From IMG/VR virus record IMGVR_UViG_2563366979_000001, positions 1 to 18,357 of that record: 18,357 nt of DNA, one strand, 5' to 3'. The position numbers and the translations under genes are program-made. Shown piece after piece: positions 1,165 through 2,321 of the stretch. This DNA is from a virus (lineage: Duplodnaviria; Heunggongvirae; Uroviricota; Caudoviricetes). The notes under the pieces are model-generated. The model was not told the DNA's origin. It saw nothing but the letters and a program-made list of their open reading frames with translations, and did not search any database. How positions within the stretch are numbered: position 1 is the first letter of the stretch; the number at the start of each line of letters is the position of its first letter.

Positions 1165-1391
1165 TTTCTTTCCTCTGTTATGCCATCACCCGCGCTCACC
1201 TGGACAGTATGCAGCGGAGACTGAAGCGCCGCAATGCAGGCTTGCCGTGTTGTGAGGTAAGGAGATTTTGGCTTGGTTGGATCTTTGCGTGTTGCCTGTA
1301 GGCGGCCTGTTCGTATCCAGTTGGTGGCGGTTGGTCTGGATATCTTAAGAAACTGACAGGCCTCATCGAGTGTGAGGCTGTATGATTCCAT
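1020..1391 (-). CDS. xis: Excisionase (AlpA/MerR-like HTH Xis); C-terminal extent uncertain because the open frame runs about 140 nt into the integrase start
   Basis: Frame beginning [38 protein letters not shown] is a typical Xis/AlpA helix-turn-helix; sits immediately upstream of int on the same strand. Confidence 0.65.
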
Positions 1392-1641
1392 GGTTACCTC
1401 TGCTTTTTGAACGCATGTCACGTAACTTCTTAATGTGTTCTGCCGTTTCGATCTCTTCTGCTATCCGATCTGCATCAGCTTTATTCACAGGTTCAAAGTC
1501 ATGATTAAAGCGGAACATGCTGGCGATACATGTTCTGCCTTTTCGGATGTAGTGAACTTTGTTGTGGGTAGAACGCAGGATTTTGCAGGGAGTGCCGTGG
1601 TGGTCGACGTACCAGGTGTTAGGAAAAATGATTCTGAACAT
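1363..1641 (-). CDS. Hypothetical small prophage protein (92 aa)
   Basis: ORF preceded on the minus strand by GAGGTG SD-like motif about 5 nt before ATG; overlaps xis start by about 26 nt; no recognisable motif. Confidence 0.45.
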   Translation of the reverse strand: MFRIIFPNTWYVDHHGTPCKILRSTHNKVHYIRKGRTCIASMFRFNHDFEPVNKADADRIAEEIETAEHIKKLRDMRSKSRGNHGIIQPHTR

Positions 1642-1688
1642 TTTTACACCTCAGTTGGACGATGTTGAAATTTGCTGCTTTGAGGCCA

Positions 1689-1907
1689 TCACAATCCCCA
1701 TTGTTTGTTCTTAAGTTCGATCTCCTCCTGGCAACTTGCACAAGTCCGACAACCCTGAACGGCCAGGCGTCTTCGTTCATCTATGGGATCGCCACACTCA
1801 CAACAATGAGTGGCAGATATAGCCTGGTGGTTCAGGCGGCGCATTTTTATTGCTGTGTTGCGCTGTAATTCTTCAATTTCTGATGCTGAATCAATGATGT
1901 CTGCCAT
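1689..1907 (-). CDS. TraR/DksA-family C4 zinc-finger protein (72 aa)
   Basis: CxxC-(17)-CxxC motif (CCECGDPIDERRRLAVQGCRTCASC) typical of phage/plasmid TraR-DksA zinc fingers; AGGGA SD-like motif upstream. Confidence 0.75.
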   Translation of the reverse strand: MADIIDSASEIEELQRNTAIKMRRLNHQAISATHCCECGDPIDERRRLAVQGCRTCASCQEEIELKNKQWGL

Positions 1908-1960
1908 CTTTCATTAATCCCTGAATTGTTGGTTAATACGCTTGAGGGTGAATGCGAATA

Positions 1961-1983
1961 ATAAAAAAGGAGCCTGTAGCTCC
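1961..1983 (-). terminator. Putative intrinsic terminator for the 2061-2321 minus-strand gene
   Basis: Hairpin GGAGC-CTGTA-GCTCC (1969-1983) followed on the minus strand by U-tract (plus-strand A-tract 1961-1968). Confidence 0.45.
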
Positions 1984-2060
1984 ATGATGATTTTGTTTTT
2001 CATGCTCACCGTTCCTTAAAGACGCCGTACAGCATGCTGATATGAGACAATGTTGATTCA

Positions 2061-2321
2061 TTAAGTTGATTCCAGACTTCCTTTGGTAAAAGCTTGTATC
2101 AGTCTGTTTGCTGCTGCTTTCTGCGCTGCCACATTGGCAATAACAGATAGTTTTTCCTGGCTGGCTTTCGTGCAGATCCCCGCCCAGTTATCCATCAGAA
2201 AAAAATCCTCTCTTTCTGCAGAGCTGGTAGTTGCACATAGTTTTTCGATCATAGAAGTTATTTCTGCGATGGAATGATTAACCATCATCTGTTGAACCGC
2301 AAAACCGAAAGCGTTAATCAT
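2061..2321 (-). CDS. Hypothetical protein (86 aa)
   Basis: ORF with GGAG directly upstream of the ATG and a hairpin/U-tract downstream; no recognisable domain. Confidence 0.4.
   Translation of the reverse strand: MINAFGFAVQQMMVNHSIAEITSMIEKLCATTSSAEREDFFLMDNWAGICTKASQEKLSVIANVAAQKAAANRLIQAFTKGSLEST

Follow-up and report, generated by a model that had tools for sequence, protein, structure and literature searches.

What are the three small open reading frames (ORFs) that lie side by side on the minus strand next to the integrase gene of a caudoviral sequence, and do they represent special cargo, ordinary phage genes or relics of such genes? The sequence is IMG/VR virus record IMGVR_UViG_2563366979_000001 (Duplodnaviria; Heunggongvirae; Uroviricota; Caudoviricetes), of which positions 1 to 18,357 were analysed; this whole stretch of 18,357 nucleotides (nt) is referred to here as the window. 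The three ORFs, of 92, 72 and 86 amino acids (aa), sit between a 1,303-aa plus-strand gene (2672-6583) and the excisionase (xis) and integrase (int) genes. An original prediction, made from the sequence alone, described them as a cluster of three small genes including a TraR/DksA-type zinc-finger protein, with a possible role in anti-defence or host takeover. Their coordinates, lengths and shared orientation with int and xis are as predicted, and two of them are conserved coding genes, an ortholog of lambda orf73 and a DUF4222 gene, but the 86-aa ORF is the 3' stump of a 354-aa gene encoding a DGQHR-domain protein. With a probability of roughly 85%, the region belongs to a defective lambdoid prophage of DLP12 type at argU and forms the integrase-proximal part of its early leftward (pL, exo-xis) operon, with the two genes silent and the 86-aa ORF reduced to a dead fragment. 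In active phages, the corresponding stretch lies distally within the early-left operon (PMC8614690; PMC9239242). The minus-strand order in the window is DGQHR 3' stump, 29-codon ORF with hairpin, orf73 ortholog, DUF4222 gene, xis and int (Table 1). The ORF with its hairpin and an 81-nt remnant of replication gene P had been overlooked in the original prediction.

Table 1. Features at the integrase-proximal end of the window (positions are those of the window; strand '.', unstranded).
Feature	Position	Strand	Evidence
Tyrosine integrase (intD type, 387 aa) at the argU end of the DLP12-type prophage	1-1164	-	Pfam Phage_integrase E=5.5e-47
Excisionase (HTH_17; 123 aa, ATG at 1391)	1020-1391	-	phrog_2907 E=5.9e-46; HTH_17 E=1.2e-8
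DUF4222 protein, 92 aa, isoelectric point (pI) 9.9	1363-1641	-	PF13973 E=1.9e-19; phrog_285 E=3e-38
Lambda orf73 ortholog, TraR-family RNA-polymerase secondary-channel protein, 72 aa	1689-1907	-	91.5% identity to lambda ORF; PF01258
Conserved 29-codon ORF (MKNKIIMELQAPFLLFAFTLKRINQQFRD)	1914-2003	-	AAGGA Shine-Dalgarno; stop 6 nt before orf73 ATG
Intrinsic-terminator-like hairpin (GGAGCTACAGGCTCC) followed by TTTTTTATTATT	1963-1983	-	Within the 29-codon ORF, upstream of orf73
DndB-like DGQHR gene 3' remnant, codons 262-354 of 354; pseudogene fragment	2061-2342	-	Identity to WP_021557045
Deletion junction, 1 shared base	2342	.	blastn against EcPF15 locus
Replication gene P remnant, last 26 codons and stop (...ALAKIAEIKAKFGLKGAMK*)	2342-2422	+	EcPF15 P gene ends at locus 10500 = window 2422

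A tblastn search aligns the 72-aa protein with an ORF at positions 30401-30613 of phage lambda over 71 aa; this ORF, which lies between ea22 and orf61 and is unannotated in the lambda record, is lambda orf73. The predicted assignment to the TraR/DksA family is confirmed by a match to Pfam zf-dskA_traR (PF01258) of 35.2 bits against a cut-off of 24.9, by a match to phrog_54 'DksA-like zinc-finger protein' (E=1e-25) and by end-to-end alignment with the F-plasmid TraR chains of the RNA polymerase (RNAP) complexes 5W1S and 6N57. Identical proteins are labelled 'TraR/DksA family transcriptional regulator' by the Prokaryotic Genome Annotation Pipeline (PGAP). The C4 zinc finger, as read off the translation, runs C35-x2-C38, 17 residues, C56-x2-C59 (CxxC-17-CxxC). 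TraR-family proteins have a single N-terminal helix and a length of about 70-75 aa, as does the 72-aa protein, and they are defined by a DxxDxA motif (PMC9239242); here, D3-I-I-D6-S-A8 aligns with D3-E-A-D6-E-A8 of TraR. In a phmmer alignment to 5W1S_M, the arginine pair R46/R47 aligns with R48/R49 of TraR, which contact the rim helices and beta' Si3. Orthologs of lambda Orf73 are further recognized by high identity, by extra cysteines and by a place downstream of a conserved block. The 72-aa protein retains both extra cysteines typical of lambda Orf73 (C36 and C53), and its gene and lambda orf73 lie downstream of the same nearly invariant block, about 110 nt long. The two proteins have the same six cysteines, D3/D6/A8, zinc-finger spacing and arginine pair, and differ at six of the 71 aligned residues (A49/V, E62I63/DL, K66N67/IS, W70/R), of which five fall in the region of the C-terminal helix.

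The suggestion that a TraR homolog encoded here could bind RNAP and reprogram host transcription has been borne out experimentally for lambda Orf73. This protein binds RNAP (Gopalkrishnan et al., mBio 2022, PMC9239242), inhibits ribosomal RNA (rRNA) and ribosomal-protein promoters as efficiently as TraR and complements a dksA-null strain, and its D3A and D6A substitutions weaken activity (PMC9239242). It slows host growth, lowers plating efficiency by about 10^4-fold when expressed from pL, and raises phage yield about 4-fold (PMC9239242). In an active phage, the N-terminal helix of Orf73, with the DxxDxA motif at its tip, enters the RNAP secondary channel, rRNA and ribosomal-protein promoters are inhibited without guanosine tetraphosphate (ppGpp), and host resources are diverted so that phage yield rises; these activities were demonstrated for the lambda protein. 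On the strength of 91.5% identity and the conserved motifs, the 72-aa protein is predicted to share RNAP binding and ppGpp-independent inhibition of rRNA promoters. Host takeover is thus an apt description of orf73 in an active phage, but not of the cluster as a special cargo island, which it is not: it is the normal exo-xis end of the operon. The setting of the gene in the window differs from that in lambda in two respects. Its downstream neighbor is the DUF4222 gene, in contrast to ea22, ea8.5 and orf55 in lambda, and, unlike lambda orf73, it sits in a defective prophage without an early region and hence is probably unexpressed.

The location of the prophage was established by megablast against 5,426 complete Escherichia coli genomes and by the annotated neighborhoods of the matches, which map the window's left end to the DLP12 site. 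The gene order at this site is fimZ, tRNA-Arg (argU), intD, xis, a DUF4222 protein and a TraR/DksA family transcriptional regulator, with intD annotated beside tRNA-Arg in KOr019, REL606, EcPF15 and K-12. The prophages of KOr019 and EcPF15 show the layout from which the window departs. Past TraR, they continue with a 354-aa DGQHR-domain protein, DUF1317 (the family of lambda orf60a), exo, bet, gam and kil, then with a repressor/cro region, ydaT, O and P, and after P with an inverse-autotransporter adhesin and an alpha/beta hydrolase, both of which are also present in the window. A comparison with DLP12 of K-12, proposed in the original prediction, was made and proved uninformative: homology to the window ends at 1259, and both the orf73 and DUF4222 genes are missing there.

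Alignment with EcPF15 shows that one 7.6-kb deletion accounts for the absence of the entire early region. By blastn, window 1-2342 corresponds to EcPF15 locus 458-2799 and window 2342-8221 to locus 10420-16299, with 7,620 bp of the EcPF15 prophage missing in the window. The deleted segment comprises the 5' part of the DGQHR gene, DUF1317/orf60a, exo, bet, gam, kil, the repressor/cro region, ydaT, O and most of P. Lambdoid early regions carry the promoter pL and the antiterminator gene N, and both were presumably lost together with the repressor region. What is left of P is on the plus strand and directly adjoins the junction; matches to this remnant fall in a feature annotated 'replication protein P', and the remnant's frame was read from the sequence. 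None of the 5,426 complete E. coli genomes spans the junction, and a 32-mer across it was found neither in species-representative genomes nor in 80 IMG/VR loci. As the junction is lacking in all three collections, the deletion is private to this lineage within them. REL606 and K-12 have lost the same early region through different, independent deletions.

The same junction accounts for the 86-aa ORF. This ORF (2061-2321) is identical to residues 269-354 of the 354-aa protein WP_021557045 and starts at its internal Met269; its match to phrog_7901 is likewise confined to positions 269-353 of 355. The full-length parent matches TIGR03187 over residues 13-281 (E=1.5e-55) and the PADLOC model of DndB (E=4e-37), whereas the 86-aa ORF matches no NCBIfam family and not the PADLOC DndB model. 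Compared with DndB/DGQHR proteins, the window keeps an identical C-terminal tail (262-354), while the DGQHR domain (TIGR03187, about 276 positions) is almost wholly deleted, with only residues 262-281 of domain 13-281 surviving. We infer that the 86-aa ORF is a dead fragment and a non-functional relative of DGQHR/DndB proteins rather than an independent gene. Lack of conservation as a coding sequence, which would speak against such a cluster, is thus seen for this ORF, where the conserved unit is the 354-aa gene, but not for the orf73 and DUF4222 genes.

The two proteins flanking the TraR homolog, which had been described as matching nothing recognizable, both belong to known families, the 86-aa fragment to the DndB-like DGQHR proteins and the 92-aa protein to Pfam DUF4222, the family of RgdR. 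The PF13973 match of the latter covers profile positions 1-53 of 53 at 69.4 bits against a cut-off of 27, and its gene has a GAGG Shine-Dalgarno sequence 7 nt before the ATG. Homologs come from phages and prophages of Escherichia, Shigella, Citrobacter, Enterobacter, Salmonella and Klebsiella; across 134 homologs, the core at residues 1-78 is conserved and the tail (79-92) varies. An AlphaFold2 model (predicted local distance difference test score 84) folds as a small five-strand SH3-like beta-barrel (residues ~10-52) with a long C-terminal helix (54-82). Searches of BFVD with this model returned uncharacterized small proteins only, and sequence and profile searches of the PDB gave no match. 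The only characterized family member is RgdR (ECs1581), a basic protein of 99 aa from cryptic prophage Sp7/OI-51 of enterohemorrhagic E. coli (EHEC) O157:H7 (PMC3378721, PMC10877973), whose membership was confirmed here (PF13973, E=2.1e-23). RgdR activates LEE1 of the enterocyte effacement locus (LEE) and represses motility, and its binding to DNA is weak and non-specific (PMC3378721, PMC10877973). Both proteins are thus small, basic (pI ~10), prophage-encoded members of PF13973.

Together, the orf73 and DUF4222 genes form an ordinary, very common lambdoid module that is already known. A 548-bp segment comprising both is covered to at least 80% in 2,178 of the 5,426 complete E. coli genomes (~40%). 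In IMG/VR, TraR lies upstream of DUF4222 in 79 of 80 loci, a set restricted to loci with a 100%-identical DUF4222 protein and hence no test of linkage across diverse phages. Selection was assessed through the ratio of non-synonymous to synonymous substitution rates (dN/dS), by the Nei-Gojobori method, against REL606, EcPF15, lambda, phage 21, HK639 and Salmonella phage S9-5. Both genes are under purifying selection, with dN/dS of 0.05-0.36 where dS is measurable, synonymous sites being saturated in the most distant comparisons (Klebsiella; for TraR also S9-5). The 72-aa gene covers 0.05-0.36, with 0.05 against REL606 and 0.09 against EcPF15, and the DUF4222 gene 0.14-0.35.

The closest counterpart in a described phage is found in SfI, a functional, sequenced serotype-converting Shigella phage, in which the 29-codon ORF, TraR, DUF4222, xis and int follow one another in the order and spacing of the window; its DUF4222 protein is 97.8% identical and its Xis 81%, and its TraR has the same C-terminus. 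Coliphage 21, also functional, has the same gene order, but with an extra gene between TraR and DUF4222, a 79-aa DUF4222 protein, and a different xis and int. The DLP12 prophage of E. coli B strain REL606 corresponds to window 1-2041 at 98.9% nucleotide identity. Which gene lies upstream of the 29-codon ORF varies among these elements, with a mosaic boundary at window 2028-2041; in 73 IMG/VR loci with TraR, homology to the window ends at 2041, just upstream of this ORF, while four reach the DGQHR gene. TraR and DUF4222 are also adjacent in a Klebsiella phage, next to int, and similarly in Salmonella phage S9-5. In the Klebsiella phage, ST13-OXA48phi12.5 (locus L009, 2283-2740), the last base of the TraR/DksA coding sequence (CDS), at 2501, is the first base of the DUF4222 CDS, an arrangement that would be compatible with translational coupling. 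DUF4222 homologs are unannotated in the records of S9-5 (locus L008, 2501-2731), where an opposite-strand CDS is given instead, and of HK639 (locus L007, 2501-2734), where an overlapping ORF in another frame is given.

Directly upstream of orf73, about 110 nt show almost no variation among the window, REL606, EcPF15, lambda and phage 21, nor in SfI. They contain the 29-codon ORF, which is annotated as a CDS in phage 21 (CPT_21_39) and SfI (SfI_0032), matches no Pfam or PHROG family, and has too few substitutions for a test of coding constraint. We regard it as a candidate leader, coupled to orf73. Two further ORFs here, at 1914-2009 (31 aa, GTG start) and 1933-2061 (42 aa), were considered as separate genes and rejected; they have no family matches, and in the frame of 1914-2009, conservation and annotation elsewhere are limited to the 29-codon form with the ATG start. 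Within the 29-codon ORF lies the hairpin, with a predicted RNA fold of -13.4 kcal/mol (z=-2.3). Its 21-mer also occurs in lambda (30669-30689), phage 21, REL606, EcPF15 and KOr019. A scan of the whole window against Rfam detected no RNA family. We suspect that the hairpin acts as a terminator of the pL operon that is overridden by N antitermination, and it may be lambda tL3; both lambda records are without a terminator annotation at this place and the papers without coordinates, and it is described here as terminator-like. The stretch may serve as leader ORF, operon terminator or both.

What does this imply for expression in the window? The 7.6-kb deletion removed the rest of the early region and left the hairpin standing upstream of orf73, and for these two reasons the intact orf73 and DUF4222 genes are most likely transcriptionally silent relics. 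Promoter-like sites are no commoner in the stretch than in shuffled sequence. Given the toxicity of Orf73 expression, silence is also the simplest reading.

Several observations weigh against the overall interpretation, in part or in whole. With NCBIfam TIGR02419 (C4_traR_proteo), the 72-aa protein scores 54.4 bits, narrowly below the cut-off of 59.7. The terminator activity of the hairpin is putative, and the terminator scan returned one site where 1.5 are expected by chance. A weak minus-strand promoter-like site at 2601-2572, or read-through, could drive some transcription of the two genes. Both are intact in many cryptic DLP12 copies without an early region, REL606 among them (TraR dN/dS 0.05), and such intactness in decayed prophages could reflect continued use by the host. 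For the DUF4222 protein, Foldseek gave no significant PDB match with the model (best E=0.016, to generic PWWP/Tudor/KOW/SH3 barrels), and the assignment of a function from structure was dropped on these grounds. Orthologs of RgdR have an RGD motif at residues 20-22, and those reported share >77% (PMC3378721), whereas the window protein is only 24% identical to RgdR over 75 aa and lacks the motif, with P7-N8-T9 at the aligned position. RgdR moreover belongs to a P4-like element, where it lies upstream of a primase gene, not beside lambdoid xis and int. Judged by sequence, the window protein is a family member but not an RgdR ortholog, and the regulation of LEE and motility is not transferable to it. 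That it is an accessory transcription modulator or weak nucleic-acid binder expressed with Orf73 is a weak guess.

The alternative that survives best, though we regard it as unlikely, is that the module has been domesticated, with the host keeping and expressing orf73 and DUF4222 in cryptic DLP12-type prophages, either to brake ribosome synthesis independently of ppGpp or to regulate host genes, in the manner in which RgdR controls LEE and motility in EHEC. Such retention would fit the intactness of both genes in the window and REL606 despite independent deletions of the early region, the occurrence of the pair in ~40% of the complete E. coli genomes and the low dN/dS of TraR, and there is a precedent in RgdR itself, a DUF4222 protein of a cryptic prophage that regulates host virulence genes (PMC3378721). 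However, the low dN/dS may stem from the phage phase, the copies being too alike to separate selection before decay from selection after it, and the segment has been lost from K-12. Promoter-like matches at chance level leave the module with no evident promoter of its own, and the strong growth inhibition by Orf73 (PMC9239242) is at odds with constitutive expression.

A bolder version joins the two proteins in function. The adjacency of their genes in several lambdoid and P22-like phages, together with the abutting TraR stop and DUF4222 start in one Klebsiella phage, leads to the idea that Orf73 and DUF4222 are a two-protein unit for the takeover of host transcription, acting at RNA polymerase or the nucleoid, that has been domesticated in E. 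coli as a ppGpp-independent growth brake; we consider this a long shot. If it were true, the persistence of the pair in ~40% of E. coli genomes, cryptic DLP12 copies without an early region among them, would amount to domestication.

Integrase-proximal and early-operon accessory regions of temperate phages often hold anti-defense genes. That the three ORFs are a counter-defense island of small phage inhibitors of host immunity, as the original prediction had raised, is nevertheless very improbable: the intact parent of the 86-aa ORF is DndB-like and could relate to DNA-modification-based immunity, but this gene is truncated in the window and without its DGQHR domain, none of the three ORFs has a significant PADLOC match (none at all for the DUF4222 protein and the 86-aa remnant, and a marginal, unrelated one to mREase_II, E=0.005, for the 72-aa protein), DUF4222 has no link to defense, and the 72-aa protein is accounted for by the RNAP-directed function of its 91.5%-identical ortholog (PMC9239242).

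The xis ORF covers 116 of the 117 positions of excisionase profile phrog_2907 and overlaps the start of int by 145 nt. The 81% identity to SfI Xis extends over all 116 aa, and SfI Xis likewise overlaps int (120-145 nt across the window and SfI). The window xis probably encodes an intact, unusually long Xis; its equivalent in related genomes is called a 66-bp pseudogene fragment by RefSeq (PGAP). The 1,303-aa gene beyond the P remnant encodes the inverse-autotransporter adhesin and contains two adjacent copies of about 347 bp (3983-4329 and 4340-4686), ~97% identical to each other at a spacing of 357 bp, which encode repeated domains. Homology of the window to the EcPF15 prophage ends at 8221. 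The part from 8221 to 18357 encodes a lipocalin, a DUF1722/2-thiouracil-desulfurase protein, two AraC-type regulators and a P21-type holin (12993-13298), directly followed by a tail-fiber gene (13383-15665); this adjacency suggests that further deletions removed lysis and morphogenesis genes.

The value of reading the cluster as the probably silent distal end of a lambdoid early-left operon is small beyond annotation. The 72-aa gene becomes an ortholog of lambda orf73, with a published mechanism, the 92-aa gene is assigned to the DUF4222/RgdR family, and the 86-aa ORF is recognized as a deletion stump. The locus also draws attention to the role of DUF4222 proteins and to the frequent position of their genes next to those of TraR homologs beside xis and int.

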